Source: a virus (Duplodnaviria; Heunggongvirae; Uroviricota; Caudoviricetes). Taken from it: a stretch of DNA of 41,297 bases. The position numbers and the translations under genes were made by a program. Location: positions 1-41,297 of the IMG/VR virus record IMGVR_UViG_2897346870_000001; one strand, 5' to 3'. Each line of letters starts with the position of its first letter. Positions within the stretch are counted from its first letter, which is position 1. Positions 4,556 through 40,781 of this stretch are shown one piece after another. A model generated the notes under the pieces. The model saw nothing but the letters and a program-made list of their open reading frames with translations, was not told where the DNA came from and searched no databases.

Positions 4556-4851
4556 GCCGCTTCCCTCTGCCCATCAATCCGATCCGCCAGATCCCAGCGG
4601 GCGATAATTGCCATTGCCTCGCGCCGGTAGGCATCCATAAGTTCTTCGAACTCAGGGCTGTCTTTAGCTGCCTCCAGCACTTCCTGGCGAACTCCTTTGC
4701 CTGTTACAGCGTCAAAAGTTGAGGCCAGTTGATGAAGCCGGATGCTCTCGATCAGTTCAACTTGTCGGTCATATAGCTGTTCTGACAGGCGGTAGTCCTT
4801 GTCGAATGCCAGCATGATTTTTTGAAGATTTTTCTGCTGATTAACGTTCAT
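4552..4851 (-). CDS. Hypothetical early protein
   Basis: About 100 aa (MNVNQQKNLQK...), overlaps the exonuclease start; first protein-sized gene of the leftward operon. Confidence 0.45.
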   Translation of the reverse strand: MNVNQQKNLQKIMLAFDKDYRLSEQLYDRQVELIESIRLHQLASTFDAVTGKGVRQEVLEAAKDSPEFEELMDAYRREAMAIIARWDLADRIDGQREAA

Positions 4852-4853
4852 TA

Positions 4854-5006
4854 TCAGCCCTCCCATATCTCGTTATCGTTGGCCACATCGCGAGCTTCTT
4901 TGCTGACGAAAGCCCACTTAATGCCTTCCTGTAAGGTGCGGAACTTCCAGCTCATGAATCCGCATGCAGTAACGCAGTACCAACCGTTGATGATTTTCCA
5001 CTGCAT
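4854..5006 (-). CDS. Small ORF (50 aa) absent from the ORF track
   Basis: Hand translation MQWKIINGWYCVTACGFMSWKFRTLQEGIKWAFVSKEARDVANDNEIWEG; GAGGT Shine-Dalgarno 9 nt upstream; stop is 2 nt before the next gene start. Confidence 0.25.
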   Translation of the reverse strand: MQWKIINGWYCVTACGFMSWKFRTLQEGIKWAFVSKEARDVANDNEIWEG

Positions 5007-5087
5007 AACTTGTTACCTCGGTCTGTTACCGTTGAGGTAATAATTATGCGTATTTGGTTTGATGTCAATAGATATGAGTTAAAAAAA

Positions 5088-5102
5088 TTACCTATTAGGT
5101 AA
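5088..5102. promoter_or_regulatory. OL-like operator palindrome TTACCTATTAGGTAA
   Basis: Near-perfect 15-bp inverted repeat at the head of the leftward early operon, just downstream of the repressor gene terminator. Confidence 0.5.
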
Positions 5103-5111
5103 TAGTATAGG

Positions 5112-5138
5112 CAATAAAAAAGCCGCCAGAAGGCGGCT
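5112..5138 (-). terminator. Rho-independent terminator of the repressor gene
   Basis: GCCGCC-AGAA-GGCGGC hairpin followed by a T-run on the minus strand, immediately 3' of the repressor CDS. Confidence 0.6.
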
Positions 5139-5159
5139 TACTTACTGAAAAGTATGATT

Positions 5160-5744
5160 TTATTGTTTGTTTTTTTCGTTCTGGTTGATGACAAATTCAA
5201 TATAACTTTCGATCTTTGCTTTCTCGGTTTCGGGTAACAATGCGTAGCGCGAGCGGTCATAGTTGATGGTCGCAGGGTCGTGCGGGTGAATCAGTAATTC
5301 ATAGCCGTGACGCCCGAATGCGGATGCAACATTCTCCAGGGTGGAAATGGAAACGCTGACCTCATTGTTTAACAGGCGGCTGATTGTCACCTGGGCGACG
5401 CCGGATGCGCGGTGAAGTTTTCCCTGTGTTGAAAGGTCGCGGCTTTCGCTCATCCAGCGTTCCAGGTTGTGAGCCGCCAGCTGACCAATGTCGCTTGGGC
5501 CGACAGGCTGAAAACCTTCCTGAGAAAGCGAGCGATCGATATCAAGCCAGTTACGTGGTTTATTGGCGGCAGCTTCAATTTTTCGCGCAACCTGGTCGCC
5601 GATAACCTTCTTGCCAAGAGCCCAGCGGTTTACCAGATTTGCCTGAGTTCCAAGTTTTTCTGCCATCCGCGTCTGAACACCATTGAATTCACGGTCGATC
5701 AAGTCGTTGAGATTTTGCCTGCGGACGTCCTGGATACTTTTCAT
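5160..5744 (-). CDS. Prophage repressor, tandem HTH (XRE-type), no peptidase S24 domain
   Basis: 194 aa with two HTH-like segments (TRMAEKLGTQANLVNRW and ASGVAQVTISRLLNN); divergent from the Cro-like gene across a three-operator region; no LexA-like Ser/Lys autocleavage module recognised. Confidence 0.75.
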   Translation of the reverse strand: MKSIQDVRRQNLNDLIDREFNGVQTRMAEKLGTQANLVNRWALGKKVIGDQVARKIEAAANKPRNWLDIDRSLSQEGFQPVGPSDIGQLAAHNLERWMSESRDLSTQGKLHRASGVAQVTISRLLNNEVSVSISTLENVASAFGRHGYELLIHPHDPATINYDRSRYALLPETEKAKIESYIEFVINQNEKNKQ

Positions 5745-5799
5745 TTTCTGGAAAATCGCCTCATATATGAATCAGTAGATGATTCAATTTAAAGCAATA

Positions 5800-5862
5800 T
5801 TACCCAACAGGTAAATGCACCTCATAGGTAACTATCCTTGATTTTTGTTACCTTATGGGTGA
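5800..5862. promoter_or_regulatory. Tripartite OR-like operator region with divergent promoters
   Basis: Three 15-bp sites: 5800..5814 TTACCCAACAGGTAA, 5817..5831 GCACCTCATAGGTAA, 5848..5862 TTACCTTATGGGTGA. Candidate rightward promoter (-35 TTGTTA 5845..5850, -10 TATTAT about 5868..5873) overlaps the third site. Confidence 0.55.
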
Positions 5863-5898
5863 ATATTTATTATCTGAAATAAATATCAGGCAATAGCT

Positions 5899-6129
5899 AT
5901 GAGCGATAACGGACATTTCGATTTCAAAAAGCACTGGCTTGCACTTACTCCGGATGAGCGTGAAGCCTTCGCACAGGAAGCCGGAACGACGAGTCACTAT
6001 ATCCAGACTCACTTAACAGGTAAGCGCAAAATGCCAGGTAAAGTATTGATGAATGGGCTTTTTAAAGCCTGTAAAACAAGACAATGGCTGCGCTCAAAAG
6101 CAGAACTGGCATACTTCTTCTACTCATGA
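5899..6129 (+). CDS. Cro-like small HTH regulator
   Basis: 76 aa, divergent from the repressor across the operator cluster and followed by a tR1-like terminator; family assignment is positional rather than by a strong motif. Confidence 0.5.
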   Translation: MSDNGHFDFKKHWLALTPDEREAFAQEAGTTSHYIQTHLTGKRKMPGKVLMNGLFKACKTRQWLRSKAELAYFFYS

Positions 6130-6151
6130 TATCCAGCCACAACCCTCTGTA

Positions 6152-6173
6152 GACCGCCACCCGGCGGTCTTTT
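6152..6173 (+). terminator. tR1-like rho-independent terminator
   Basis: GACCGCC-ACCC-GGCGGTC hairpin followed by TTTT, directly after the Cro-like gene. Confidence 0.6.
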
Positions 6174-6184
6174 CATATCTATTC

Positions 6185-6199
6185 GCACCTCAAAGGTAA
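6185..6199. promoter_or_regulatory. Operator-like palindrome GCACCTCAAAGGTAA
   Basis: Same family as the OR sites; lies between the tR1-like terminator and the next gene. Confidence 0.4.
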
Positions 6200-6279
6200 T
6201 AAAAAACCAAATCTGGTTGATATTTTTTTTGTGTCAGCACAAAATGACCGTAATCCCAATACTAATAACAGGGCTTACC

Positions 6280-6480
6280 ATGGAAATCATTACACGTATT
6301 GATGCCGCAAAGCGCGGACTTAAACGCTACTACACCGGAAAAACATGTAAGCACGGACATGACAGTGAACGCTGGGTTTACAACGGACACTGTGTTGAGT
6401 GCACCATGGAATCAAACCGTCGTATCAGGGCAGAGATTAAGCAGATCATGATTAATTCCTCCCCACAACATTCAAGCTGA
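6280..6480 (+). CDS. Small zinc-ribbon protein (cII-position hypothetical)
   Basis: 66 aa from the internal Met (MEIITRIDAAKRGLKRYYTGKTCKHGHDSERWVYNGHCVEC); C/H-x2-H...C-x2-C arrangement. Confidence 0.4.
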   Translation: MEIITRIDAAKRGLKRYYTGKTCKHGHDSERWVYNGHCVECTMESNRRIRAEIKQIMINSSPQHSS

Positions 6481-6495
6481 TAGCGTAGATTAATC

Positions 6496-7311
6496 ATGAG
6501 CAGACATGCAACAGATTGGGCCTGGGAGACAGATCCAGGTAGCTCGTCATTAAAGCTCATACTGCTCTCGATGGCTGACAGAGCCGATGAATATAACCTC
6601 TGCTACCCCAGCATAGAACGCCTCGTTAAAGACACTTGCCTGAATAAAAAAACCGTGCAGGCCGGGCTTATATCGCTCATGAAAATGGGGCTTATTTCAG
6701 ATACCGGAGAGAGAAAGGGAGCGACGAAAAGAGTGCGGGTTTTCTCTCTTAATATAACCAAAAACGGGAACATTAAAGGCAACCGGGAAGGGGGTAATGA
6801 ACCCGAAAACGGTAATGTTACCGAAAACGGGAATATACCCAAAAACGGGATGTTGAATGATCCCAAAAACGGGATGTTGAATGATCCCAAAAACGGGATC
6901 CAGAACCAGTCATATAACCAGTCATTTAACCAAGAGAGGGAGAGCAGGACAAAAAGCGGGGATTCTGTGCCTCATGACCCCGGCGCAAACAACGCCGTGA
7001 TGAATAACTTTGTTCCTCCTGGTGGGCCAGGGCAATTAGGCAAATTTGTCATGCATGAACAATGGCAACCATCAGATGACTTTCTTCGGAAAAGCTCATT
7101 GCAGGGGATCTACCTGGACAGTCTGCCAACGGCACAGGAACTTGCAGAGTTCAGAATTTACTGGATGGCTGAGGGTAAGGCATACCATCAGGCGCAGTGG
7201 GAGCAGAAGCTGGCAAGGCGGCTGCAGATTAGCAGACAGAAGCAATCAACATTACCTGATAACAACGTTCCGCACTGGAACAGCCCTGAAGCATGGGAGG
7301 ATTTCTTGTGA
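6496..7311 (+). CDS. Replication initiator (lambda O-like organiser) with internal iterons
   Basis: N-terminal winged-HTH-like region (LKLILLSMADRADEYNLCYPSIERL); central repetitive NG-rich linker encoded by iterons; followed by a lambda P-like gene. Confidence 0.65.
   Translation: MSRHATDWAWETDPGSSSLKLILLSMADRADEYNLCYPSIERLVKDTCLNKKTVQAGLISLMKMGLISDTGERKGATKRVRVFSLNITKNGNIKGNREGGNEPENGNVTENGNIPKNGMLNDPKNGMLNDPKNGIQNQSYNQSFNQERESRTKSGDSVPHDPGANNAVMNNFVPPGGPGQLGKFVMHEQWQPSDDFLRKSSLQGIYLDSLPTAQELAEFRIYWMAEGKAYHQAQWEQKLARRLQISRQKQSTLPDNNVPHWNSPEAWEDFL
6758..6903 (+). repeat. Origin-like iteron array inside the initiator gene
   Basis: Six direct repeats with core CC(A/C/G)AAAACGG(G/T)A starting at 6758, 6802, 6820, 6838, 6862 and 6886, including two identical 24-bp units (CCCAAAAACGGGATGTTGAATGAT). 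Confidence 0.6.
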
Positions 7312-8130: not shown

Positions 8131-8207
8131 TTACCTGTTAGGTAATAAAATATTCTAAAATCTATTGATTTCGTGTCTTATGTGGTTTTTAATTACCTCA
8201 GAGGTAA
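8131..8207. promoter_or_regulatory. Two operator palindromes upstream of the nin-like operon
   Basis: 8131..8145 TTACCTGTTAGGTAA and 8193..8207 TTACCTCAGAGGTAA; the second overlaps the Shine-Dalgarno of the 8211 gene; motif ATGTGGTT at 8180..8187. Confidence 0.45.
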
Positions 8208-9324: not shown

Positions 9325-10140
9325 ATGAGCAAGATTGACTATCAGGCACTGCGTGAAAAGGCAGAGAAAGCAACGTGTGGTGTGTGGTCGCTCGAATATG
9401 GAGAGGGCCGATTTGATGGTGATGATGCACTAATTCATCGCGAGGCTGCTGGATATATTCCCATTTGCAGAATTGAAGGAGCGCATCCTGAAAGCGGTTT
9501 CGATGAAGATTTCCAAATAGAACAGCAGGCCAATGCTGAATTCATCGCCGCAGCCAATCCGGCTACCGTGCTGGCACTACTGGATGAACGGGAAAGAAAC
9601 CAGCAATACATCAAACGCCGCGACCAGGAGAACGAGGATATTGCGCTAACGGTAGGGAAGCTGAGAGTTGAGCTTGAGGAAGTAAAACAACACGCTGAAG
9701 AATTATCCGAAACCAAGGCTGTTCGTAACCAATGGCGGCCAGATATTTGCCCAATAACCGGACGTGCATTTTTCATGTGGATTGAGCATCCAACATTGGG
9801 GAATGTGCCGACATATGGTGGCCCATTAGATAGTTACACCATTCCAACAAAGGACGGTGACGGTGAGTTTTCATGTGAGCGTTACGATCATGATTTTGGC
9901 GGTTGGGTAGAAAGCGAATGTCTTGGGTTATATCTGATTGATGATAGAGAACAATGCAGGGTCTACGAACTGGAGGAACGCGTTAAGGAACTGGATGCTC
10001 GGGAAATATCGCTCCCGGAACGTAGCAGCATGCTTCATCGAACAGATTTTCACGATGATTACCAAACGGTAATGGCATACAAAGTTTCTGAAGTCATCGC
10101 TGCAATCCGCACCGCTGGCATTCGCATCAAAGGAGAGTGA
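9325..10140 (+). CDS. Ea22-like phage protein
   Basis: 271 aa; N-terminus MSKIDYQALREKAEKATCGVWSL... is of the type seen in lambdoid ead/Ea22-like proteins (from memory). Confidence 0.5.
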   Translation: MSKIDYQALREKAEKATCGVWSLEYGEGRFDGDDALIHREAAGYIPICRIEGAHPESGFDEDFQIEQQANAEFIAAANPATVLALLDERERNQQYIKRRDQENEDIALTVGKLRVELEEVKQHAEELSETKAVRNQWRPDICPITGRAFFMWIEHPTLGNVPTYGGPLDSYTIPTKDGDGEFSCERYDHDFGGWVESECLGLYLIDDREQCRVYELEERVKELDAREISLPERSSMLHRTDFHDDYQTVMAYKVSEVIAAIRTAGIRIKGE

Positions 10141-11428: not shown

Positions 11429-11471
11429 GCATGGTACTATTACCACAACGGTAACTATTACCACGGTGGTT

Positions 11472-12068
11472 ATGATGCCTGCTGAACCTAAAACCTATAA
11501 ACGCAAATCAACGCAATTTAAGCCACTAACAGCAATGCAGGAGGCTTATTGCCAGTCATACATCAAAACGCCTGAAAACCAGACTCAGGCAGCGATTAAC
11601 GCAGGATTCTCCCCAAATACAGCGGCAGTTAAAGCCAGTGTCATGATGCGCGATGAACGCATTCAAAAACGGATTGCCGAGTTGATGGAGGAGCGCAACA
11701 AACGAATGCGCGTCAGTGCTGATTACGTTCTCATGCGCCTGGTGGAGATCGACCAGATGGACGTGATCGACATCCTCAACGACGATGGGAGCCTTAAACC
11801 AATCCGTGAGTGGCCGAAAATCTGGCGCACTACGCTTAGCGGCTTTGATCTGTCATCGACCATCATGAACATGAACGAGGATTCGATAGAGACAATCCTC
11901 AAAAAAATTAAATGGCCTGACAAGGTGAAGAACCTTGAGCTGATTGGTAAGCATGTTGATGTCAACGCGTTCAAAGAACGCCTGGATGTTAATGTGAATG
12001 TGACAATTGCTGATCGCATAGCGGCAGCCAGGAAGAGACTGAAAGAACGTCAGGATGGCAATCAGTGA
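11472..12068 (+). CDS. Terminase small subunit
   Basis: Terminase_2-type pattern LTAMQEAYCQSYIKTPENQTQAAINAGFSPNTA...IQKRIAEL. Start placed at the internal ATG (MMPAEPK) after the terminator rather than the track start 11394. Confidence 0.75.
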   Translation: MMPAEPKTYKRKSTQFKPLTAMQEAYCQSYIKTPENQTQAAINAGFSPNTAAVKASVMMRDERIQKRIAELMEERNKRMRVSADYVLMRLVEIDQMDVIDILNDDGSLKPIREWPKIWRTTLSGFDLSSTIMNMNEDSIETILKKIKWPDKVKNLELIGKHVDVNAFKERLDVNVNVTIADRIAAARKRLKERQDGNQ

Positions 12069-13630: not shown

Positions 13631-14137
13631 TTATTGAATTACAATCCAGTCATCAGATAGCAGATCGGTTTGAGATGCCAGCCACGGTACAAAGCAACCG
13701 TCAGCAGTTTTCATCCCAATCCACGGTAGAAGTTTAACGCCAGGTACAAATGTATACTCGTCACCGCATGTAACGTCAAATCGCCAATCGTTCGGAGTGG
13801 CCGATTGCGGTGGCTTAACCAGTTGCAGATACATGCCTTTGCCATTCCATCCGGCACGTGCAATGCGCTTACCATCTTTGAGTGATGACAAAGCAGTGGA
13901 GAAAGATACTGTTGATATTTCAGAACGTTGTGCTGTTATCCAGTCATGGAACGTAACGCTAGTACCATGGTCTTCGCTAAGAGTTAACCCGGCCAGTCCC
14001 TCACTCTGAATTACTTCGTAATGCATTTCATTACCAGCAAAAACGCCATAAAAAACGCAGTCTTCAGCCTGAACGATACGAGAATATTTTAATGGCCATT
14101 CATTTAGATACTTAGCCAACATATCAATTGTTTTCAT
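13631..14137 (-). CDS. DUF2829-domain protein (Tad2-like candidate anti-defence protein) with unknown N-terminal extension
   Basis: C-terminal half carries the DUF2829 hallmarks ARAGWNGKGMYL and WLASQTDLLSDDWIV; leftward gene in an accessory cassette with a tRNA between the terminase and portal. Confidence 0.6.
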   Translation of the reverse strand: MKTIDMLAKYLNEWPLKYSRIVQAEDCVFYGVFAGNEMHYEVIQSEGLAGLTLSEDHGTSVTFHDWITAQRSEISTVSFSTALSSLKDGKRIARAGWNGKGMYLQLVKPPQSATPNDWRFDVTCGDEYTFVPGVKLLPWIGMKTADGCFVPWLASQTDLLSDDWIVIQ

Positions 14138-14335: not shown

Positions 14336-14412
14336 TGGCGTGGCATGCAGGATTCGAACCTGCGACCAACCGCTTAGAAGGCGGTTGCTCTGTCCAACTT
14401 AGCTAATGCCAC
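14336..14412 (-). tRNA. tRNA-Arg (anticodon UCU)
   Basis: 77-nt minus-strand cloverleaf: 7-bp acceptor stem GTGGCAT/ATGCCAC, anticodon stem ACCGC/GCGGT with loop CTTCTAA (UCU), T-arm GCAGG-TTCGAAT-CCTGC, discriminator G plus encoded CCA; close to E. coli argU in the 3' half. Confidence 0.85.
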
Positions 14413-14734: not shown

Positions 14735-14749
14735 TTACCTGAAAGGTAA
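14735..14749. promoter_or_regulatory. Operator-like palindrome TTACCTGAAAGGTAA upstream of the structural operon
   Basis: Perfect-arm copy of the dispersed motif; CATATGTGGTT at 14791..14801. Confidence 0.4.
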
Positions 14750-19222: not shown

Positions 19223-19567
19223 GTGATATCGATGTCAGGTGAGAAACCAAGATACCGCGTTCTGCGCCTCTCTCATATCCATAACACACTGTGGCCGGAG
19301 GGGGCAGAAATCGAATACGAAGGTGAGCCTGGTAGCGCACTGGAACCTGTTAACGATGCAGCCAGACAGGCAAAAGCAAAGGTAGCAGGAAAGGTGTCTA
19401 TGGCAGCAACCAGCACCAAAATCATCAACGATGTGTCAGATGATGGTGAACTGGATAAGCTCCGTGAAGAGTACGAATTGCTCTTTAACGAGAAGCCACA
19501 CCATAACGCCAAAGCCGAAACGCTCCGCGAGAAGATCGCAGATAAGCGTAAAGAACTGGGCGTGTAA
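19223..19567 (+). CDS. Hypothetical head-module protein
   Basis: 114-aa ORF ending just before the terminator. Confidence 0.4.
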   Translation: MISMSGEKPRYRVLRLSHIHNTLWPEGAEIEYEGEPGSALEPVNDAARQAKAKVAGKVSMAATSTKIINDVSDDGELDKLREEYELLFNEKPHHNAKAETLREKIADKRKELGV

Positions 19568-19584
19568 GCCTCGCGAATCCGACA

Positions 19585-19605
19585 AGGGGCTTCGGCCCCT
19601 TTATT
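19585..19605 (+). terminator. Rho-independent terminator after the head genes
   Basis: AGGGGC-TTCG-GCCCCT hairpin followed by TTATT. Confidence 0.6.
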
Positions 19606-19617
19606 GCAGGAGTGTAT

Positions 19618-19941
19618 ATGGAACTCGTAAACCTCAAAACCGGCACTGACAGCTACCAGGATGAGAGCGGAGAAACCAGAACTCGCGATGAATACCCGTG
19701 GGGGCTGTGCATCACTCTTAATAACGACACATTGAATAAGCTGAAGGCGCAACCTCAGGGCGTCGGAACAGAAGTGATGATAACTGCAAAGGCTGTTATT
19801 CGAGGCCTGTCTGCCAGAGAAACTGACGATGGTGTTAATCGCAGCGCCGATCTGCAGATCACTGATATGGCGATCGCTCCTGTTTCCGGGGATGTAGAAA
19901 AATCAGCGGCTGAAACTCTGTACGGCAATGGGGGTGAGTAA
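19618..19941 (+). CDS. Hypothetical virion protein
   Basis: 107 aa from the ATG at 19618 with AGGAG Shine-Dalgarno; first gene of the tail operon. Confidence 0.4.
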   Translation: MELVNLKTGTDSYQDESGETRTRDEYPWGLCITLNNDTLNKLKAQPQGVGTEVMITAKAVIRGLSARETDDGVNRSADLQITDMAIAPVSGDVEKSAAETLYGNGGE

Positions 19942-20546
19942 TGGCCTCTGTAGTAGAGATCTGCAATCGTGCGCTGTCCAATATTGGCAATAGCCGCAGC
20001 ATTAACAGCCTGACGGAAGCCAGCAAGGAAGCGGGGGAATGTTCGCTGCACTTTGAGGCCTGCCGTGATGCTGTGCTTTCTGATTTTGACTGGAACTTTG
20101 CTACCAAACGCGTGGCGCTTGCAGATACGAGCAATCCACCGCCTGACTGGGAATATGCGTATCAGTACCCGTCCGATTGTCTGCGCATTACTGAAATTAT
20201 GCTTCCTGGTGTACGCAATCCAACAGCAGCAATGCGTGTTCAGTACGAAGTTGGTGCAGACACCAACGGAACAGGAAAGTTGATCTACACAGACCAGCCG
20301 CAGGCATGGCTCAAGTATGTCTCTCGCGTTACAGATGTGAACATGTTTGATGCCATTTTTATGGAGGCGTTGGCCTGGCGTCTTGCGGCAGCTATTAACA
20401 TGGCGCTGACTGGGAATGCAGACCTCGGTACGTTTGCCCTCAATATGTACAATCGCGTGATTCTTAGTGCTGGCTCGCATAGCCAGAATGAATCACAGGA
20501 ACCACAGCCACCGGTTGACGAGTTTACCATTGCGAGGTTGTCCTGA
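19941..20546 (+). CDS. Tail tubular protein A-like (gp11-type adaptor)
   Basis: 201 aa; position and N-terminal pattern (EICNRALSNIGNSRSINSL) consistent with podovirus gp11-type proteins; weak by-eye match. Confidence 0.45.
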   Translation: MASVVEICNRALSNIGNSRSINSLTEASKEAGECSLHFEACRDAVLSDFDWNFATKRVALADTSNPPPDWEYAYQYPSDCLRITEIMLPGVRNPTAAMRVQYEVGADTNGTGKLIYTDQPQAWLKYVSRVTDVNMFDAIFMEALAWRLAAAINMALTGNADLGTFALNMYNRVILSAGSHSQNESQEPQPPVDEFTIARLS

Positions 20547-30890: not shown

Positions 30891-31262
30891 ATGAACAGAA
30901 TTATATTAATGATTATTCTTATGCTTTTAGTTGTAAAATCTTTTGCAGATACTACCTCACCGTTAATGATTCAGCCTAAAAATGGGGAAACACTGGAGGA
31001 TTCTAAAAAGCATACAATGGAATATTTTGGATGTATAAAAGGGCAGGCCGTAAAATACGCTAAGACAGGAGAAAGTGTTGATTCTATATCCAAAGCTTCG
31101 GTTGTGTCATGCGAGTCGTACATACAAAAGATTGCTGAATCAAATATATACTATTTAAATTCCTCTCAAGACGGTAAGCGGAAATTTATTGGAAGGCTTA
31201 AATCAGATGGTGAAAGTTTAGCAACGAAATTTGCTATGGATGAAAAGCTAAAAAATAAATAG
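30891..31262 (+). CDS. AT-rich moron: secreted protein with signal peptide
   Basis: 123 aa; N-terminal MNRIILMIILMLLVVKSFA signal peptide, two Cys; GC content visibly much lower than neighbouring genes; start 1 nt after the preceding stop. Confidence 0.55.
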   Translation: MNRIILMIILMLLVVKSFADTTSPLMIQPKNGETLEDSKKHTMEYFGCIKGQAVKYAKTGESVDSISKASVVSCESYIQKIAESNIYYLNSSQDGKRKFIGRLKSDGESLATKFAMDEKLKNK

Positions 31263-31372
31263 GTGACTACATGCAAGCGATAGGATTCATTGGGCTGATG
31301 GTTTGCAGCTAACCTGCAAGTTTGCGAAGTGCCAAACAAATAATCTCACGGCGCTGTTCATCCCCAGGAAGC

Positions 31373-31395
31373 TGCATTGTGATTTTCACAATGCA
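31373..31395 (+). terminator. Perfect 10-bp hairpin TGCATTGTGA-TTT-TCACAATGCA
   Basis: Downstream of the moron gene; followed by GGTTTTAAA; possible end of the late transcript. Confidence 0.35.
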
Positions 31396-31412
31396 GGTTT
31401 TAAACCACTGCT

Positions 31413-31619
31413 TCATTTTCGTAAAGCCATACAAATCATGGCTTGCACCCCACCGGCAGAAGGTATGGTGATTTCCACCATACCCTTCGAGAAGCGTTGA
31501 GAAATCTTCTTATGTTGAGATTTCCAGTCTAGACCCATTCCCTCAACGATAGGTTTCATTGGGGTGTACGGTTCGCCGTTGTGATTGACAACATAAAGTT
31601 CTGCGCCGTGGAATGGCAC
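31413..31619 (-). pseudogene. Possible truncated antirepressor/Rha-like N-terminal fragment
   Basis: 68-aa GTG-initiated ORF (VVNHNGEPYTPMKPIVEGMGLDWKSQHKKI) resembling N-terminal DNA-binding domains of Rha/Ant proteins, with no Shine-Dalgarno and no C-terminal domain. Confidence 0.2.
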
Positions 31620-31766
31620 GTTGATAGTAGTGACAAATTTGAAACATCGCTGGTTGTAAGCCAGCAGATGCTCGTTATTTTACGTCGCGGCACAATTTCT
31701 CGCTGCTGGCTCTTTTACACGCATTAACCAAATATGGTTGATTTTAATATCCACCTGTGCCTATTA

Positions 31767-31846
31767 TTACCTTTGCGGTAAATTTACATCGCACTCCTCT
31801 TGTGCCATAGTAATCGGGCACTGGCAAAATCCAGTGCCGGGATTGG
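31767..31846. repeat. Inverted repeat IR-A, left copy (antirepressor promoter/leader)
   Basis: About 80 bp, near-identical in reverse complement to 34928..35007; includes operator TTACCTTTGCGGTAA (31767..31781) and the palindromic hairpin GCACTGG-CAAAAT-CCAGTGC. Confidence 0.8.
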
Positions 31847-32048
31847 TCTCCCGGATTACTACAGAGGCACATATGCCGCATAAGCGGTTTTTTTATGTGT
31901 AAAGCGCACCTATTCTATGGTGGGCTGTGTGGGGGCACCGAAAGGTGCGCCGGGTTCCTTTGTAGCCGGTAAGACCAACTCTGCACAGTTCACCACCATC
32001 TGATTGGTCTCAGCGGTGGTGATTAACCTAACTACAAAGGTGATCGCC

Positions 32049-32741
32049 ATGAATACCAAACCTTCCATCTTTTCCTTTGAGTCATCCTGCCAGATCCGTA
32101 TGTTCATGATTGACGGAGAACCTTGGTTTGTCACCAAAGATGTGTGCAATGCTTTGAATATTGATGTTACACAAGCGAGAAAACTTGATAAAAAAGGCTG
32201 GAACAAAAAGGGGCTGTATTCAATACAGACCCCTGGTGGAATACAAGAACTATCCATCGTTTCAGAATCAGGTCTCTACATCCTTATTCTGCGTTGCAAA
32301 GAGGCAATGACTGAGGGAACGAGAGCATTCAGATTTCTTGAATGGGTTACAGGTGAGGTTCTTCCTCAGATCCGCCGCACCGGAAGCTACATTAAAAACT
32401 CGCTCCCGCAGGAAGAGCGCATAAAGATGGTTGCCGACCAGGTAGCCAACGCCACGGCGTCAGCAGTAATGCAGGCGATGAAGATAGAGAACAAAACCTA
32501 CAGTGCCCCACTGAAGCCCGGCTACCGCAGCCTGATTCATTCGCCGTCTGGTGTTCTCGGCCTGACGGAGAACTCACTGCTGATGAATCTGCTGAACCAG
32601 TTACAGGAAGACGGGCATGACGTATCGGGCGCGGCGGCGGAGTTGACCACCATGTTCTGCTACATCGTCGGTGTGAACAAATGCCTGCGTGATATCCAGA
32701 CGCACGCGGAGTACATCAACGACAAAGCAGGGTTCTTCTGA
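32049..32741 (+). CDS. Antirepressor, BRO-N N-terminal domain plus shared C-terminal domain (copy 1)
   Basis: N-terminus MNTKPSIFSFESSCQIRMFMIDGEPWFVTKDVCNALNI is a BRO-N-type fold; C-terminal 125 aa nearly identical to the gene at 34013..34723; AGGTGA Shine-Dalgarno. Confidence 0.7.
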   Translation: MNTKPSIFSFESSCQIRMFMIDGEPWFVTKDVCNALNIDVTQARKLDKKGWNKKGLYSIQTPGGIQELSIVSESGLYILILRCKEAMTEGTRAFRFLEWVTGEVLPQIRRTGSYIKNSLPQEERIKMVADQVANATASAVMQAMKIENKTYSAPLKPGYRSLIHSPSGVLGLTENSLLMNLLNQLQEDGHDVSGAAAELTTMFCYIVGVNKCLRDIQTHAEYINDKAGFF

Positions 32742-32743
32742 CG
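32341..32743. repeat. Inverted repeat IR-B, left copy (3' half of antirepressor 1)
   Basis: About 400 bp, near-identical in reverse complement to 34011..34413; produces mirrored 61-aa artefact ORFs in the track (32392..32577 and 34177..34362). Confidence 0.85.
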
Positions 32744-32778
32744 AGCGGCGGCACAGGGATGTGCAAAACGAAACTATC

Positions 32779-32815
32779 GTGACATGTCACAGGCCGCTTT
32801 CGCGGCCTTGTTTTT
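32779..32815 (+). terminator. GTGACATGTCAC copy 3 fused to a strong rho-independent terminator
   Basis: Palindrome 32779..32790 directly followed by AGGCCGC-TTTC-GCGGCCT plus TGTTTTT (32791..32815). Confidence 0.7.
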
Positions 32816-32975
32816 AACGAATGCCACCGCCACCCGGGCGGGAATCCGCAGAACGCCCACCGCAGCGGGAGCCGTCAGCAGCAGTGTCGCTGTCGTGCTG
32901 ACAACGACCGGCAAAGGCCTGAGTTGAAGCTACCAGAGACAACAAAACGAACAGTGCAGCAAATGCTTTTTTCAT
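32814..32975 (-). CDS. Small secreted protein (53 aa) with signal peptide
   Basis: MKKAFAALFVLLSLVASTQAFA signal peptide then a Gly/Arg/Asp-rich 31-aa mature region with two Cys; start at the internal ATG of track ORF 32814..33047. Confidence 0.4.
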   Translation of the reverse strand: MKKAFAALFVLLSLVASTQAFAGRCQHDSDTAADGSRCGGRSADSRPGGGGIR

Positions 32976-33056
32976 TGTGAAATTTCCATCTATAAACCAC
33001 CTCAATGTGGCGTCAATGAGTGTAGCACTGACTTTTGTTTCGTCCATAAAAAACTA

Positions 33057-33569
33057 CTATGCAGGCTTTTTGGATTTGTACGAATAATCCCACGGATAAA
33101 CATTTCTACTAAGTGGAGCTGTATTCGTTCGTTCATGAAATAATTTTGTGAAATTCAATACGGAATCCATCCAAACTTTTGCGTTAGCTTTGGTGTGTGC
33201 GGGCGGGTCCCAATAAGCTAGTAAGGCTGCATCTCTTATTTCATTGACTGCATATATGAGATATGCGTTACTGGTTGGTTTTGGCCTGTAATTTCCTTGT
33301 TCATCAATCAATCCATATGACCACTCATCCCAACACTGTTCAGTACATGAGTATGAATATGATGCATATTCACCAATATTGACATGAACCTTTCTGAGAT
33401 GGAAGCCTAATACTTCCTCTGGTCTTTCAAAAAGAGTATCTTTTCCCAGATCAGGATGATGACCATGACGCCAGTGTTGTTTAAAAGCATCTTTTAGCGA
33501 AATCAGAAAGTCATCAGTTTTAAACTCACCAGTAGGTATAACCTTCCCGCTATACTCACTCAAAAACAT
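33057..33569 (-). CDS. YafO-like toxin candidate (type II toxin-antitoxin family)
   Basis: By-eye alignment to E. coli YafO recalled from memory: HPDLGKDTLFE vs LPDIFGRDALYD, LRKVHVNI vs ERVAHIHL, AYLIYAVNEIRDAALLAYWDPPAH vs AHLVYCQGAFDEQAWLLIAILKPEPH. AT-rich; overlaps the upstream gene by 14 nt. Confidence 0.5.
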   Translation of the reverse strand: MFLSEYSGKVIPTGEFKTDDFLISLKDAFKQHWRHGHHPDLGKDTLFERPEEVLGFHLRKVHVNIGEYASYSYSCTEQCWDEWSYGLIDEQGNYRPKPTSNAYLIYAVNEIRDAALLAYWDPPAHTKANAKVWMDSVLNFTKLFHERTNTAPLSRNVYPWDYSYKSKKPA

Positions 33570-33882
33570 CGAATTCCTCTTCCTTCATATGCGTTTCTAA
33601 TGAGTTAAGCTGGCGGAAAGATATCTCTTTTGATTCTGCAGATGAGAGCTTTTTTATCCGCTTTATATTCTTTGTGATAGGAATAGACATTGTATGCACA
33701 TCAGCGGATGCTCTTGGCTTTGTGCTGATAAAAATATGGCGCAATGCCGCATTTTCACTATTGAACGAGCCAATAGCTGATTTACGTGCTACAACCTTAC
33801 CAGTAAAAATACGACTCTTGCTACGCTTTGCATGAGTTCCGCTTCTTACCGGACCTCTCATCACGAATCCAAGTTTTGTCAT
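33556..33882 (-). CDS. Putative antitoxin/partner of the YafO-like gene (unknown family)
   Basis: 108 aa, basic with acidic C-terminus (MKEEEFDVFE); first gene of a two-gene overlapping operon; GGAG Shine-Dalgarno. Confidence 0.35.
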   Translation of the reverse strand: MTKLGFVMRGPVRSGTHAKRSKSRIFTGKVVARKSAIGSFNSENAALRHIFISTKPRASADVHTMSIPITKNIKRIKKLSSAESKEISFRQLNSLETHMKEEEFDVFE

Positions 33883-33924
33883 CTTTAATCTCCGGTAAGT
33901 TACAGGTATAAAATAAAAACAGGT

Positions 33925-33939
33925 TTACCTTTAAGGTAA
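33925..33939. promoter_or_regulatory. Operator palindrome TTACCTTTAAGGTAA upstream of the toxin-like operon
   Basis: Perfect-arm copy of the dispersed motif, 43 nt upstream of the 33882 start on the minus strand. Confidence 0.45.
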
Positions 33940-34010
33940 TAGTACGCTATTCACCCACAGTCTGCAATCTGTACAGAATTATTTAAAGGCACATCCCTGT
34001 GCCGCCGTTC

Positions 34011-34413
34011 TGTCAGAAGAACCCTGCCTTGTCGTTGATGTACTCCGCGTGCGTCTGGATATCACGCAGGCATTTGCTCACACCGACGATGTAGCAGAAC
34101 ATGGTGGTCAGTTCCGCCGCCGCGCCCGATACATCATGCCCGTCGTCCTGCAACTGATTCAGCAGATTCATCAGCAATGAGTTCTCCGTCAGGCCGAGAA
34201 CACCAGACGGCGAATGAATCAGACTGCGGTAGCCGGGCTTCAGCGGGGCGCTGTAGGTTTTGTTCTCTATCTTCATCGCCTGCATTACTGCTGACGCCGT
34301 GGCGTTGGCTACCTGGTCGGCAACCATCTTTATGCGTTCTTCCTGCGGGAGCGAGTTTTTAATGTAACTTCCGGTGCGGCGGATCTGAGGAAGAACCTCA
34401 CCTGTAACCCATT
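34011..34413. repeat. Inverted repeat IR-B, right copy
   Basis: Reverse complement of 32341..32743. Confidence 0.85.
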
Positions 34414-34723
34414 TGCGAAAGCGGTAGGGGATAGTGCCTGGTGTCACTGCGTCGCGGCAGCGGAGGATCAGTGTGTAGAGGCCTGACTCGGAGATGATGT
34501 TGATCTCTTTTACTCGGCTGTCAAAAATTGCACGATGTTCATGCCCTATGTTGAACATAGACCTTTCATCATCATCCAGTTTTTCAAGTGCTTGGGTGAC
34601 GTTTTGGATACGCAGCGCACTACAAACGTCTTGGGCTACAAACCATGGTTGGCCATCGATAATGATGGAACGGATAGGGTTAACAGATTCAAATTTGAAG
34701 ATGGCAGTTTGAGCATTAGCCAT
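34013..34723 (-). CDS. Antirepressor, BRO-N N-terminal domain plus shared C-terminal domain (copy 2)
   Basis: N-terminus MANAQTAIFKFESVNPIRSIIIDGQPWFVAQDVCSALRI (BRO-N-type); C-terminal domain differs from copy 1 at only 2 of about 118 residues; GGAG Shine-Dalgarno. Confidence 0.7.
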   Translation of the reverse strand: MANAQTAIFKFESVNPIRSIIIDGQPWFVAQDVCSALRIQNVTQALEKLDDDERSMFNIGHEHRAIFDSRVKEINIISESGLYTLILRCRDAVTPGTIPYRFRKWVTGEVLPQIRRTGSYIKNSLPQEERIKMVADQVANATASAVMQAMKIENKTYSAPLKPGYRSLIHSPSGVLGLTENSLLMNLLNQLQDDGHDVSGAAAELTTMFCYIVGVSKCLRDIQTHAEYINDKAGFF

Positions 34724-34927
34724 GGTGGTTATCTCCACTTAGTGATTTTAATCACCACCGCAACGCCAATTACTGGTGGTGAACTGGACAAGGTTGGCGT
34801 ACCGGCCTAAGTGGTACCGGCGTCCTTTCGGACCCCTGCCCAGCCCACCATAATTCGGATATAGCTGTGCTTAACGCATAAAAAAACCACGTCTGGCGTG
34901 GTATGCGCCACTTAGTAACTCGGGACG

Positions 34928-35007
34928 CCAATCCCGGCACTGGATTTTGCCAGTACCCGATTACTATGGCACAAGAGGAGTGCGATGTAAATTTACCTCA
35001 AAGGTAA
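34928..35007. repeat. Inverted repeat IR-A, right copy (antirepressor 2 promoter/leader)
   Basis: Reverse complement of 31767..31846; contains operator at 34993..35007 (TTACCTCAAAGGTAA). Confidence 0.8.
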
Positions 35008-35038
35008 ATATAAGCACTCCACTTGGTAATTGCAAACC

Positions 35039-35296
35039 TTATCTGGTTTGCTTTCGTAATTGTTCGGCACAATAGTCGAGATGTGTTTGCAGATCCTGCA
35101 TAGACATCTGTGAGCTGGTGACGTAGTTAATCAGTGCAGTCAGTTCGGCAAGTGGGCCATCGACATTAAATCCATCCTTATCGAGATCCCGGAGTAATTT
35201 CATCAAGTGCGATCCCTCCACCAGTGATCTGACGCCTCCCGGCGTGTGAATCCTTTCGGTAAATCCCTCTTCCAGTGGATAGTGATACTGCTGCAT
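35039..35296 (-). CDS. Stand-alone paralogue of the antirepressor C-terminal domain
   Basis: 85 aa; TPGGVRSLVEGSHLMKLLRDLDKDGFNVDGPLAELTALINYV...DLQTH parallels SPSGVLGLTENSLLMNLLNQLQEDGHDVSGAAAELTTMFCYI...DIQTH of the two antirepressors; GGAGAAG Shine-Dalgarno. Confidence 0.45.
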   Translation of the reverse strand: MQQYHYPLEEGFTERIHTPGGVRSLVEGSHLMKLLRDLDKDGFNVDGPLAELTALINYVTSSQMSMQDLQTHLDYCAEQLRKQTR

Positions 35297-35372
35297 CTTA
35301 TCTTCTCCATGCAATAACTGTATAAATATACAGTATCAAATAATTTGTTTGCTATCCAGCACGTTTTGCAAA

Positions 35373-35387
35373 TCACCTGAAAGGTAA
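35373..35387. promoter_or_regulatory. Operator-like palindrome TCACCTGAAAGGTAA in the divergent region before the tailspike
   Basis: One-mismatch copy of the motif; CATATGTGGTT at 35418..35428. Confidence 0.4.
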
Positions 35388-38207: not shown

Positions 38208-38624
38208 ATGGTGTTTATCATGTCAATTCAGACAACCAGTGATTCTTTGAATCAGTGGCTTAGCATGACTTCTCTGGCGGCGGTGATAGCAGGAGTTCCT
38301 CCCGAGGTTGCTTTGGGGGCTTTGGCTGGAGCGGTAATTTTTGTTACCTCTGCGGTAGAGTATCCCATTCGTCGTCGTGTACTCTTGTCGATGCTTAGCT
38401 TTCTCTGCGGCCTTCTTTTTTATAAACCAGCAGCATCAATTCTTATCGGCATAGCCAGCCTGATCCCTACTATCACGCAGGACTCTTTTGAAAAAGGGAT
38501 TGTTTTCTCTGCTGGCGCATTCGTGTCAGCAATTGTTGCTGTGCGTATTGGTATATGGCTCTACCACCGTTCCGATAATCCACGCGAGTTAATTCCGGGG
38601 AGAAAAGACGATGGTAACGCATGA
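38208..38624 (+). CDS. Holin
   Basis: Small protein with multiple hydrophobic transmembrane segments and charged C-terminus; first gene of the lysis cassette. Dual ATG starts at 38208 and 38220. Confidence 0.6.
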   Translation: MVFIMSIQTTSDSLNQWLSMTSLAAVIAGVPPEVALGALAGAVIFVTSAVEYPIRRRVLLSMLSFLCGLLFYKPAASILIGIASLIPTITQDSFEKGIVFSAGAFVSAIVAVRIGIWLYHRSDNPRELIPGRKDDGNA

Positions 38625-40032: not shown

Positions 40033-40162
40033 TTTCCGGTGACGGTATATAAAACGGTACGGCGAAAATCAGGTTGCAGAAAGTTGTTATCAGTCAATTG
40101 GTTATGTGTGTCGTAAATAATTGAGTGGGAATGATTTGACCCTGCACTATGAATGAACAAAA

Positions 40163-40226: not shown

Positions 40227-40766
40227 TTAATTAAACCAGCTGTCCGATTTGTTCTCTTCTGCTTTGCCCACGCTTTTCATCAGATCGCGACCGCCTTCAG
40301 TCATATTTCTGTTGGCGTCAGCTTCAGATTGCACCACATCGGTTTGCGCAGCTTTGTGCTTCAGTTCCTGATCGATAAATTCGTTTTCTCGCTTAACGCG
40401 GGCTTCTTCTTTCGCCAGCGCCAGTTTTTGTTTCTGAATCTCTAAGCTGCGTAGCTCATCTTCATAACTTTGATCGCGTTTTTTGTCCGCAGAGGCTTCG
40501 GCGTCCAGTTTATCCTGACGAGCTTTCTTATTTGCCGCTGCCGTTGCCGCTCTTTTGTTAGCGGCGGCCTGGGCATTTGCGCGACGTTGCTTCTCTTGCT
40601 GGATTTCCCTGTTGCGCTCCGCGACCCATTCGTCATGCTGCCTTTGCTCTTCATTTTTACCTTGCTGTTCCGCTTCTGCGACAGCAGAGAGTTGATCCTG
40701 CAATGATGAGGCGATAGCCGGATAGCTTAAGGAGGCTAAGATGGCGCAAAGAAAAACTTTCTTCAT
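40227..40766 (-). CDS. Periplasmic coiled-coil protein with signal peptide (flanking or cargo gene)
   Basis: MKKVFLCAILASLSYPAIA signal peptide then a highly charged Lys/Glu/Ala/Gln-rich helical region. Confidence 0.5.
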   Translation of the reverse strand: MKKVFLCAILASLSYPAIASSLQDQLSAVAEAEQQGKNEEQRQHDEWVAERNREIQQEKQRRANAQAAANKRAATAAANKKARQDKLDAEASADKKRDQSYEDELRSLEIQKQKLALAKEEARVKRENEFIDQELKHKAAQTDVVQSEADANRNMTEGGRDLMKSVGKAEENKSDSWFN

Positions 40767-40781
40767 GACTCCTCCTGATTA

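Follow-up and report, generated by a model that had tools for sequence, protein, structure and literature searches.

The window, by which we mean the whole 41,297-nucleotide stretch of DNA analyzed here, is a phiV10-like prophage of Escherichia coli (genus Uetakevirus, epsilon15 group). Its lysis–lysogeny switch is very probably antirepression of the SPC32H Rep/Ant type, with BRO-N antirepressor cassettes providing a second layer. The core switch mechanism is already known from phage SPC32H, and the trigger of induction has a known answer: the SOS response leads to LexA cleavage, Ant production, and Rep disassembly. A first-pass annotation of this DNA had proposed antirepressor-driven induction, with the BRO-N proteins as the drivers, and had left the trigger open. 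Its observations are confirmed in part and its interpretation is supported in part. Specifically, antirepression stands, but the leading role passes from the BRO-N proteins to a small gene that has a LexA box and encodes an orthologue of a characterized antirepressor.

The repressor and its operators

The repressor gene, rep, occupies positions 5160–5744 on the minus strand, an open reading frame running from ATG to stop. Its 194-amino-acid product is 100% identical to the repressor of phage phiV10. Pfam assigns to Rep a YdaS-type HTH at residues 21–61 and HTH_3 over two stretches, the best at residues 106–147; NCBIfam gives sub-threshold HTH matches only. No Peptidase_S24 match appears in Pfam even at E ≤ 1, and the Ala-Gly or Cys-Gly dipeptide that marks LexA/lambda CI-type cleavage sites is absent from the whole 194-residue protein. 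The first-pass annotation had described two HTH-like modules with no autocleavage peptidase and had named an S24 domain search as a check; the search, now run, bears out the description.

A phmmer search against the PDB aligned Rep residues 1–190 with residues 2–197 of chain 5D50_A, SPC32H Rep (E = 4e-42), and the C-terminal domain also matched 5D4Z. The 5D50 crystal structure, deposited simply as “Repressor,” spans the whole homologous chain and contains HTH domains only. The two repressors are 42% identical over their full length (53% in the N-terminal domain and 38% in the C-terminal domain). Because identity is just 42%, we infer, rather than observe, that the binding mode of SPC32H Rep carries over to Rep. 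Like repressors of the lambda CI/LexA type, Rep has an N-terminal HTH, divergent PL/PR-like promoters to repress, and SOS-inducible control. Unlike them, it lacks the S24 domain and the cleavage site and, by homology to 5D4Z and 5D50, would use a second, C-terminal HTH-like fold for oligomerization and Ant binding.

The candidate operator is the palindrome TTACC-N5-GGTAA, present in the window in 14 copies at no more than one mismatch, versus 1.3 expected. Operator sites overlap both PL- and PR-like promoters. The OL/PL-like region (5026–5102, minus strand) comprises operators at 5026–5040 and 5088–5102 around a promoter, TTGACA-17-AATTAT (5068→5040), that faces the leftward early operon. The OR/PR-like region (5800–5873, plus strand) comprises operators at 5800–5814 and 5848–5862 and a promoter, TTGTTA-17-TATTAT (5845→5873), that points to a gene for a 76-amino-acid cro-like regulator divergent from rep (5899–6129, plus strand; phrog_35 “transcriptional repressor,” E = 5.6e-13). 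An intrinsic terminator follows rep at 5120–5139 on the minus strand (8-bp stem with six GC pairs, then a T-run), and a terminator is marked at the corresponding position in the phiV10 record. The notion is that Rep would bind the operators at PL, PR, and dispersed promoters and that the SOS response would leave Rep uncleaved.

Rep could instead be proteolyzed after all, by cryptic RecA-dependent cleavage, by a phage ImmA/IrrE-type metalloprotease, or by a host protease, with Ant as an accessory. HTH repressors without S24 domains can be cut by COG2856 proteases, which is the sole general basis for such a proposal. Against it stand the missing S24 domain and cleavage dipeptides, a homologous full-length structure made of HTH domains only, and the phiV10 record, which annotates no protease gene beside rep. 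The literature on SPC32H (PMC7380047) likewise has Rep inactivated by Ant without cleavage, and Kim and Ryu reportedly state the same in their 2013 abstract. We give Rep proteolysis almost no weight and favor an intact Rep that is removed by Ant.

The small antirepressor gene and its LexA box

The predicted SOS-controlled trigger, ant, lies at 35039–35296 on the minus strand and encodes 85 amino acids. Judged by sequence, this small gene is the orthologue of the experimentally characterized SPC32H ant, which encodes the published LexA-controlled antirepressor. Specifically, 83 of the 85 residues align with PDB 5D50_E, the Ant chain of the Rep–Ant complex (E = 1.6e-47), and tblastn gives 89% identity to SPC32H Ant. 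The genomic position is also the same: ant is divergent from, and directly upstream of, the tailspike ORF (35492–37894, plus strand), and its SPC32H counterpart at 19676–19936 (minus strand) precedes tsp, which begins at 20134 (plus strand). Annotation pipelines leave the protein unnamed. It belongs to phrog_450, labeled “unknown function” in PHROG; Pfam and NCBIfam yield no model; PGAP names it a hypothetical protein, as does the record of phage vB_EcoP_ZX5. Thus, the SOS trigger is easily overlooked, as happened in the first-pass annotation and in the ZX5 study. The former had counted two BRO-N antirepressors and a stand-alone paralogue of their C-terminal domain. All three genes are present, and Ant is 37–42% identical to the C-terminal ~80 residues of both BRO-N proteins, but the small gene is an Ant orthologue and not a mere paralogue.

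Ahead of ant lies a LexA (SOS) box, TACTGTATATTTATACAGTT, at 35316–35335 on the minus strand, which ends 19 nucleotides upstream of the ATG. A search of the window with the pattern that the first-pass annotation itself had used, CTGT-N8-ACAG, returned a perfect match, CTGTATAAATATACAG, at 35318–35333. In a scan with a 20-nucleotide position weight matrix (PWM) trained on E. coli sites, the box scored 28.2 bits, above every training site; the next-best site in the window reached 13.0 bits, and the best across 50 shuffles, used as the control, reached 18.5 bits. That 13.0-bit site (9447–9466) falls within the shuffle range and inside a coding region, and it was rejected. The layout of operator, 52 bp, LexA box, ~19 nucleotides, and ATG is conserved in eight Uetakevirus genomes from phages of Escherichia, Salmonella, Enterobacter, and Klebsiella. 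The first-pass annotation, which had recommended a search with a proper PWM, had seen no convincing LexA box upstream of the antirepressor genes. This is true of both BRO-N genes, at which the PWM scan of the window found none, but not of ant, where a near-consensus box sits directly upstream and supplies the trigger that had been left open.

The box aligns with that of SPC32H, which differs from its variant SPC32N by a CAG-to-AAG change inside the box. Kim and Ryu reportedly found, in 2013, that this change in SPC32N gives constitutive Ant. Around the LexA box, a scan for consensus sigma-70 promoters came up empty; hexamers for the ant promoter are therefore left unassigned, and overlap between box and promoter is only presumed.

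The stretch that separates ant from the tailspike gene contains, at 35373–35387, a Rep operator-like palindrome, TCACC-N5-GGTAA, whose 52-bp distance to the LexA box is fixed. In the epsilon15 record, the corresponding site is labeled as one bound by the repressor. If Rep also represses ant from there, removing LexA might by itself be too little for induction. The constitutive Ant phenotype reported for SPC32N argues against a need for more than LexA loss.

In the scheme that we favor, host LexA would occupy the SOS box at the ant promoter in the lysogen. Upon DNA damage, RecA*-stimulated cleavage of LexA would allow Ant to be made. By homology to SPC32H, an Ant tetramer would then bind Rep dimers, break the DNA-binding Rep tetramer, and free the operators. 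PMC9638917 describes this arrangement for the characterized proteins: a Rep tetramer occupies the DNA and is broken by an Ant tetramer, which binds a pair of Rep dimers. PMC7380047, which cites Kim & Ryu 2013, also reports control of Ant by LexA in prophages of Salmonella. Finally, a DNA-damaging microcin induced phiV10-species prophages 21- to 47-fold (bioRxiv 10.64898/2026.05.26.727859). Antirepressor-driven induction with a repressor that has no autocleavage domain, as the first-pass annotation had it, is how the homologous Rep and Ant of SPC32H have been published to work (PDB 5D50).

The resemblance to SPC32H (Kim & Ryu, J Virol 2013; Kim et al., PNAS 2016; PDB 5D4Z, 5D50) encompasses the genus Uetakevirus, a two-HTH Rep without S24, an 85–86-residue Ant (89% identity) whose gene diverges from that of the tailspike, a LexA box equally far from the ant start codon, and the operator consensus TTACC-N5-GGTAA. 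The two phages differ in Rep, which is 42% identical, and in that SPC32H lacks both BRO-N genes and isrK/C4 RNAs, whereas the window has two such cassettes and the remnant of a third.

BRO-N antirepressor cassettes and their C4 RNAs

The two BRO-N proteins, encoded at 32049–32741 on the plus strand (cassette 1, 230 amino acids) and at 34013–34723 on the minus strand (cassette 2, 236 amino acids), are on sequence grounds fusions of BRO-N to an Ant-like domain. Both carry the Pfam Bro-N domain PF02498 (E = 1.8e-13 and 9.4e-20, respectively) and match PHROG 130 “anti-repressor Ant” (E = 4e-51 and 8e-56); NCBIfam yields no model for either. Residues 147–228 of the cassette 1 protein match phrog_450, and residues 154–230 of the cassette 2 protein match PDB 5D50_E (E = 2.2e-13). 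The proteins are 75% identical overall, and their Ant-like domains differ at two positions only. A truncated N-terminal fragment of a P22-type antirepressor, at 31413–31619 on the minus strand (P22_AR_N, E = 6.8e-21, profile positions 4–73 of 115), represents the third-cassette remnant; PGAP calls its equivalent in E. coli strain A_5 an incomplete pseudogene.

The first-pass annotation had noted that the antirepressor genes carry the phage operator. Operator-like copies indeed lie at both BRO-N promoters, as well as upstream of ant, but control is not by operator alone: an isrK-like leader and a C4 RNA, neither noticed in the first-pass annotation, precede each BRO-N gene. In the promoter region of cassette 1 (31767–31811, plus strand), the operator at 31767–31781 abuts a −35 element, TTTACA, followed by a 17-nucleotide spacer and a TG-CATAGT −10 (31783→31811). 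The predicted transcript start, ~31818, falls on the very base where the match to the isrK model begins (31818–31894; Rfam RF01394, 74.7 bits, GA 50); this leader small RNA has a1 (CUACAGAGG) and b1 (UUGGUCU) sites and a terminator. Next comes the C4 antisense RNA (31913–32000; RF01695, 78.6 bits, GA 45) with loops a′ (CCUUUGUAG) and b′ (AGACCAA). The remainder of the cassette (32001–32741) consists of targets b2 (32004–32010) and a2 (32032–32040, over the Shine-Dalgarno sequence) and the BRO-N gene.

Cassette 2 has the same organization on the minus strand. Its promoter region (34963–35007) has an operator at 34993–35007 abutting a TTTACA −35, a 17-nucleotide spacer, and a TG-CATAGT −10 (34991→34963). 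The isrK-like leader (34880–34956; RF01394, 63.5 bits, GA 50; c4-a1b1, 43.4 bits) contains a1 (CUAAGUGG), b1 (UUGGCGU), and an intrinsic terminator, and the C4 RNA (34772–34855; RF01695, 66.0 bits, GA 45), complementary to its targets, contains loops a′ (CCACUUAG) and b′ (ACGCCAA). Targets b2 and a2, the latter again CUAAGUGG and overlapping the Shine-Dalgarno sequence, together with the BRO-N gene complete the cassette (34013–34771). Terminator-like hairpins with T-runs lie in the leaders at 31875–31888 (plus strand) and 34902–34886 (minus strand). The interval between C4 and the BRO-N start codon is just 48 nucleotides long and in neither cassette contains an ORF, icd-like or other.

In both cassettes, a′ with a1 and a2, and b′ with b1 and b2, show exact complementarity over 7–9 nucleotides. 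The sequences of the two cassettes are different and internally compensated, and seven cassettes compared fall into three C4 specificity classes in which compensating changes keep the complementarity. Unconstrained RNAduplex runs of C4 against cognate and non-cognate targets gave no discrimination, because whole molecules unfold, so explicit loop/target complementarity was used instead. A difference in C4 specificity with compensating changes is said to have been described for P1 versus P7 by Citron and Schuster in 1990.

Such specificity classes are one of several features shared with the immI region of P1 and P7, the regulatory logic of which is set out in PMC8198154. In both, a secondary antirepressor gene lies behind a same-strand C4 RNA (RF01695), with a1/b1 upstream of C4 and a2/b2 downstream over the ribosome-binding site. 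The immI promoter is controlled by C1; here, a putative Rep operator, a palindrome abutting the −35 in both cassettes, may play the corresponding part. The window departs from P1 in having no icd-like ORF, such that a2 covers the antirepressor's own Shine-Dalgarno sequence; in its BRO-N::SPC32H-Ant-domain fusion in place of P1 Ant1/2; in a primary repressor unrelated to P1 C1; and in two cassettes in one genome, inverted relative to each other. The Salmonella prophage Gifsy-1 provides a second parallel in isrK-orf45-anrP, where an isrK small RNA (RF01394) with its own terminator heads the antirepressor transcript. There, the read-through transcript carries a C4-like RNA (STnc1160) and the antirepressor gene, which is transcribed but translationally silent; the short isrK RNA, acting in trans, switches on translation of the antirepressor and is able to trigger prophage induction (PMC4825925, Hershko-Shalev et al. 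2016). In contrast to Gifsy-1, the window has no orf45, a podovirus context with a different repressor, and no known AntQ link.

By analogy with these systems, we infer the role and timing of the BRO-N cassettes: they probably supply antirepressor in a secondary, riboregulated way and are not the SOS trigger. In a lysogen they would be off twice over, in transcription through the Rep operator at the promoter and in translation through the C4 a′ loop on the ribosome-binding site. They would most likely come on only after the first Rep inactivation, thereby locking the lytic decision, on infection, or once the isrK-like leader titrates C4.

Experimental material also comes from phage vB_EcoP_ZX5 (PMC9782041), whose ORF21 repressor is 100% identical to Rep and whose gene order, small ant, C4/isrK, and BRO-N gene, is the same; it differs in having one cassette only, of C4 class B. 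The anti-repressor of ZX5, ORF4, shares 81% identity with the cassette 2 protein, and the C-terminal 150 residues are essentially identical. Overexpression of ORF4 cut the lysogen titer from 1e9 to 1e6, shifting the phage to lysis; the study tested the BRO-N protein alone, by overexpression, and makes no mention of LexA or SPC32H (PMC9782041). This result, the induction of Gifsy-1 in stationary phase by its isrK-controlled antirepressor (PMC4825925), and the pairing of operator sites with no LexA box at the BRO-N genes all speak for the first-pass model, in which the BRO-N antirepressors drive induction in response to some non-SOS signal and LexA is uninvolved. We nevertheless consider that model very unlikely. 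It fits poorly with the near-consensus LexA box at ant and with induction of phiV10-type prophages by DNA damage, and a gene repressed by both Rep and C4 is hardly the first to respond. Moreover, the BRO-N gene is frameshifted in the phiV10 reference, and neither SPC32H nor epsilon15 has the cassette; the BRO-N genes are thus dispensable for the basic switch.

A different proposal, to which we assign a modest chance, is that the BRO-N::Ant cassettes act mainly in trans on repressors that belong to other Uetakevirus-type prophages, whether resident or incoming, as do P22 Ant, P1 virs, and Gifsy crosstalk, so that two C4 specificities amount to two extra immunity groups. The window holds two cassettes with orthogonal C4/target sets, and the genus has three specificity classes. 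The locus is a hotspot of interchangeable antirepressor cassettes, including a P22-type arc-ant-sar in TL-2011b; copies of rep reach two per E. coli genome; and PMC7380047 documents antirepressor crosstalk in Salmonella. However, the Ant-like domains of the two cassettes, differing at only two positions, probably have one target, and the ZX5 protein worked on its own phage, whose Rep is identical. Action in trans is compatible with an SPC32H-type switch and does not exclude it.

Taking the LexA-gated Rep/Ant switch as the base, we tentatively suggest a three-tier circuit not previously described in these terms: LexA-gated small Ant acts first, followed by two Rep-repressed BRO-N::Ant fusions under orthogonal C4 RNAs, with the isrK-like leaders as C4 sponges. 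If so, the cassettes could feed back positively and so make induction irreversible, could admit inputs that do not depend on SOS, as in Gifsy-1, or could cross-induce related prophages. The three C4 classes of the genus would, moreover, constitute a second, RNA-based immunity code above a shared operator consensus.

Distribution and significance

Stacked C4-controlled antirepressor cassettes offer a tidy natural case of orthogonal RNA-based control. For those engineering phiV10-type phages, ant or its LexA box is the element to remove. PADLOC, run on the YafO-like pair, the Tad2-like protein, and the small secreted proteins, returned no matches.

An SPC32H-type switch also predicts the response of these common prophages, among them those in O157 and further pathogenic E. 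coli, to antibiotics and bacteriocins that damage DNA. The co-occurrence of the two proteins speaks for such a switch: among phage records, Rep occurs in 37 and Ant in 35. Across 5426 complete E. coli genomes, rep is present in 536 and ant in 528, about one in ten.

Repressor, operators, and the small antirepressor

Over its immunity region (4800-6500), the window is 98-99% identical by sequence comparison to the phiV10-group Escherichia phages, which are epsilon15-like podoviruses of the genus Uetakevirus. The first-pass annotation placed a 194-residue repressor, here Rep, at 5160-5744 on the minus strand and saw no autocleavage domain in it, and both points hold. Specifically, the open reading frame is present, and Pfam detects HTH_3 (best stretch 106-147) and a YdaS-type HTH (21-61) in its product, with no peptidase S24 match in Rep even at E<=1. 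Neither an Ala-Gly nor a Cys-Gly dipeptide occurs anywhere in the 194-residue sequence. Rep is 100% identical to the repressors of phiV10, ZX5, PAS61, and others, 75-78% identical to Enterobacter phage repressors, ~45% identical to those of Klebsiella phages, and ~42% identical to those of epsilon15, SPN1S, and the Salmonella phage SPC32H. The SPC32H Rep chain of PDB 5D50 matches Rep over its full length (E=4e-42), and PDB 5D4Z matches its C-terminal half.

The proposed phage operator, TTACC-N5-GGTAA, is real: 10 exact and 4 one-mismatch copies exist versus 1.3 expected. Copies at 5026 and 5088 lie on either side of a PL-like promoter, copies at 5800 and 5848 overlap a PR-like promoter, and others accompany each of the two BRO-N promoters or precede a small gene, ant. 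In the epsilon15 GenBank record, the site equivalent to the one upstream of ant is annotated as a repressor binding site. Additional operator-like palindromes (8131-8145, 8193-8207, 11440-11472, 14735-14749, and 38344-38358) are scattered before the DUF1064 gene, within the small terminase gene, before structural genes, and in the lysis region, and phiV10 and SPC32H harbor such palindromes at equivalent positions. This dispersed-operator layout recalls that of P1 C1.

Judged from its sequence, the small gene (35039-35296, minus strand; 85 residues) is the orthologue of SPC32H ant. Its product is 89% identical to SPC32H Ant and matches the Ant chain of 5D50 (E=1.6e-47), and the gene is placed as in SPC32H, divergent from the tailspike gene. 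Rep and Ant co-occur: 37 phage records carry Rep and 35 carry Ant, and among 5426 complete E. coli genomes, the counts are 536 for Rep and 528 for Ant. A passage of PMC9638917, citing Kim et al. 2016, describes Rep as a tetramer on DNA and the Ant tetramer as binding two Rep dimers, thereby breaking the Rep tetramer.

Across the genus, Ant is far better conserved than Rep (89% versus 42% identity to the window proteins in SPC32H, 85.5% versus 42% in epsilon15, 64% versus 45% in Klebsiella phages), and the operator consensus TTACC-N5-GGTAA is common throughout. This pattern suggests either an Ant able to act on divergent Reps or swapping of the immunity region independently of ant. Despite an existing crystal structure and functional papers, small Ant falls into an annotation gap: no Pfam or NCBIfam model matches it (window 35039-35296; sequence L009, 5125-5382), its PHROG family, 450, is labeled "unknown function," and both PGAP and the ZX5 record list it as a hypothetical protein. 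The ZX5 study mentions neither LexA nor SPC32H (PMC9782041).

Probable LexA control of ant

No convincing LexA box had been noted upstream of the antirepressor genes, leaving the trigger of induction as a puzzle. That reading stands for the BRO-N genes, near which a position weight matrix scan of the 41-kb window reveals no notable LexA site, and fails for ant, which is preceded by CTGT-N8-ACAG without mismatch (35318-35333). The 20-mer, TACTGTATATTTATACAGTT on the minus strand, ends 19 nt before the ant ATG. With a matrix built from 26 E. coli SOS boxes, the ant box scores 28.2 bits, above every training site; the runner-up in the 41 kb reaches 13.0 bits, and the top site in any of 50 shuffles reaches 18.5 bits. 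The layout of operator, 52 bp, LexA box, ~19 nt, and ATG is common to the window, phiV10, SPC32H, epsilon15, Tyrion, BUCT554, and two Klebsiella phages, and the boxes of these 8 genomes score 18 to 28 bits.

In the 2013 work of Kim and Ryu, SPC32H Rep reportedly stays uncleaved during the SOS response, and a single base change in the LexA box is reported to make Ant constitutive in the sibling phage SPC32N. By sequence comparison, the SPC32H and SPC32N boxes differ by CAG to AAG, and the window carries the intact CAG. A DNA-damaging microcin induces prophages of the phiV10 species 21- to 47-fold (bioRxiv 10.64898/2026.05.26.727859). Thus, the LexA box, the SPC32H-type Ant, the conserved layout, the co-occurrence, and the microcin induction together give the trigger question a conventional answer that is already published. 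The proposal of antirepressor-driven induction with a non-cleavable repressor was itself correct; the system to which it belongs was published between 2013 and 2016 for another Uetakevirus phage.

BRO-N::Ant fusions, their predicted RNA control, and a proposed switch

Both BRO-N proteins named in the first-pass annotation (protein 1, 32049-32741, plus strand; protein 2, 34013-34723, minus strand) are present, as is the stand-alone 85-residue relative of their C-terminus, which is Ant. Sequence matches indicate that, in each, a linker joins a BRO-N domain to a complete Ant-like domain. The match to 5D50_E (E=2.2e-13) spans residues 154-230 of protein 2, and both proteins match the small-Ant family, PHROG 450 (~1e-36). 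The two are 75% identical overall, with just two differences from residue ~108 on. Phage ZX5, whose Rep is identical, encodes an "anti-repressor," ORF4, that is 81% identical to protein 2 and essentially the same over the C-terminal 150 residues; ORF4 overexpression lowers the lysogen titer from 1e9 to 1e6 (PMC9782041).

Upstream of each BRO-N gene, on the same strand, Rfam detects two RNAs in succession. The first is an isrK sRNA (74.7 and 63.5 bits in cassettes 1 and 2, against a gathering threshold of 50), and the second is a C4 antisense RNA (78.6 and 66.0 bits, threshold 45). The operator palindrome is followed immediately by a promoter, TTTACA-17-(TG)CATAGT, whose predicted transcription start falls at about base 1 of the isrK model, and the isrK-like stretch terminates in a hairpin and T-run. 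The C4 loop of cassette 1, CCUUUGUAG, is complementary both to CUACAAAGG, which lies over the BRO-N Shine-Dalgarno, and to CUACAGAGG in the leader. AGACCAA is complementary to UUGGUCU, one copy of which is in the leader and another immediately behind C4. The equivalent sets in cassette 2 are CCACUUAG/CUAAGUGG and ACGCCAA/UUGGCGU. Seven cassettes (two from the window and one each from phiV10, ZX5, TL-2011b, Tyrion, and a Klebsiella phage) form three complementarity classes, and all three copies of each site co-vary by class, which is covariation evidence that the C4-target pairings matter.

The same architecture exists in the P1/P7 immI operon, in which C1 represses ant transcription and the C4 antisense RNA represses its translation (PMC8198154), and at the Gifsy-1 isrK-anrP locus, where the antirepressor mRNA is made and remains untranslated until short IsrK acts in trans, contributing to prophage induction (PMC4825925). 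In the window cassettes, unlike these systems, C4 is not separated from the antirepressor gene by an icd or orf45 frame.

The notion is that, in the lysogen, Rep would occupy PL, PR, and the dispersed operators, LexA would occupy ant, and both Rep and C4 would silence the BRO-N genes. DNA damage would remove LexA, enabling production of Ant, which would dismantle Rep tetramers. Homology and the LexA box strongly support this first half, which we consider very probable. Subsequently, Rep-controlled promoters, including the two cassette promoters, would open; high transcription would yield many short isrK-like RNAs, whose a1/b1 sites could soak up C4, and the BRO-N::Ant fusions would then be translated, reinforcing Rep inactivation. 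For this second half, drawn from the anatomy and the P1 and Gifsy-1 precedents, we judge the case evenly balanced, and a role of the cassettes in trans, directed at other prophages, is a credible alternative.

The cassettes are accessory, given that SPC32H lacks a BRO-N gene as well as any isrK or C4 element, the epsilon15 ant locus has no BRO-N gene, and the phiV10 BRO-N gene is frameshifted. That gene, p23 (phiV10 19551-20230, "putative anti-immunity protein"), is disrupted inside the Ant-like domain relative to the intact window and ZX5 genes, and the small ORF p22 is probably its displaced remainder. Two BRO-N genes occupy the same locus in several other E. coli genomes, with both C4 cassettes confirmed in one, strain A_5. 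The literature examined appears to mention neither the fusion of BRO-N to an Ant-like domain nor the pairing of two orthogonal C4 cassettes within a single prophage; these features extend known types of regulation modestly.

Prophage boundary and neighboring cargo

The integrase gene (1-1251) marks the window start. The att core ATTGAGTGGGAATGATT, published in PMC9782041, occurs once, at 40120-40136; beyond it, 40227-41297 contains DUF5384 and glycine-zipper (lipoprotein) Pfam matches, from which we infer host yfgI/yfgH-like genes. Thus, the window ends outside the prophage there and begins inside the integrase gene at the other end.

The interval from the last injection/structural gene to ant (30891-35039) is a hotspot of interchangeable antirepressor cassettes. 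In the window, it houses a truncated P22_AR_N fragment (31413-31619) and the two C4/isrK-BRO-N cassettes, inverted relative to each other with 504-nt arms that are 89% complementary; TL-2011b has a P22-type arc-ant cassette with a sar RNA at the same place, and SPC32H and epsilon15 have nothing there. Between the two cassettes, within 33057-33882 (minus strand), lies a gene for a 170-residue YafO-toxin-like protein (Pfam YafO_toxin E=7e-4, below cut-off; PGAP, YafO family toxin) that overlaps an upstream 108-residue ORF. PADLOC returns no match for the pair. A perfect TTACC-N5-GGTAA is located just upstream (33925-33939), and the pair may be a Rep-controlled toxin-antitoxin-like moron. Finally, a Tad2-like domain (Thoeris anti-defence 2; E=1.2e-23) is present in a 168-residue protein (13631-14137, minus strand) whose gene adjoins tRNA-Arg(tct) (14336-14412, minus strand), between the terminase and portal genes.
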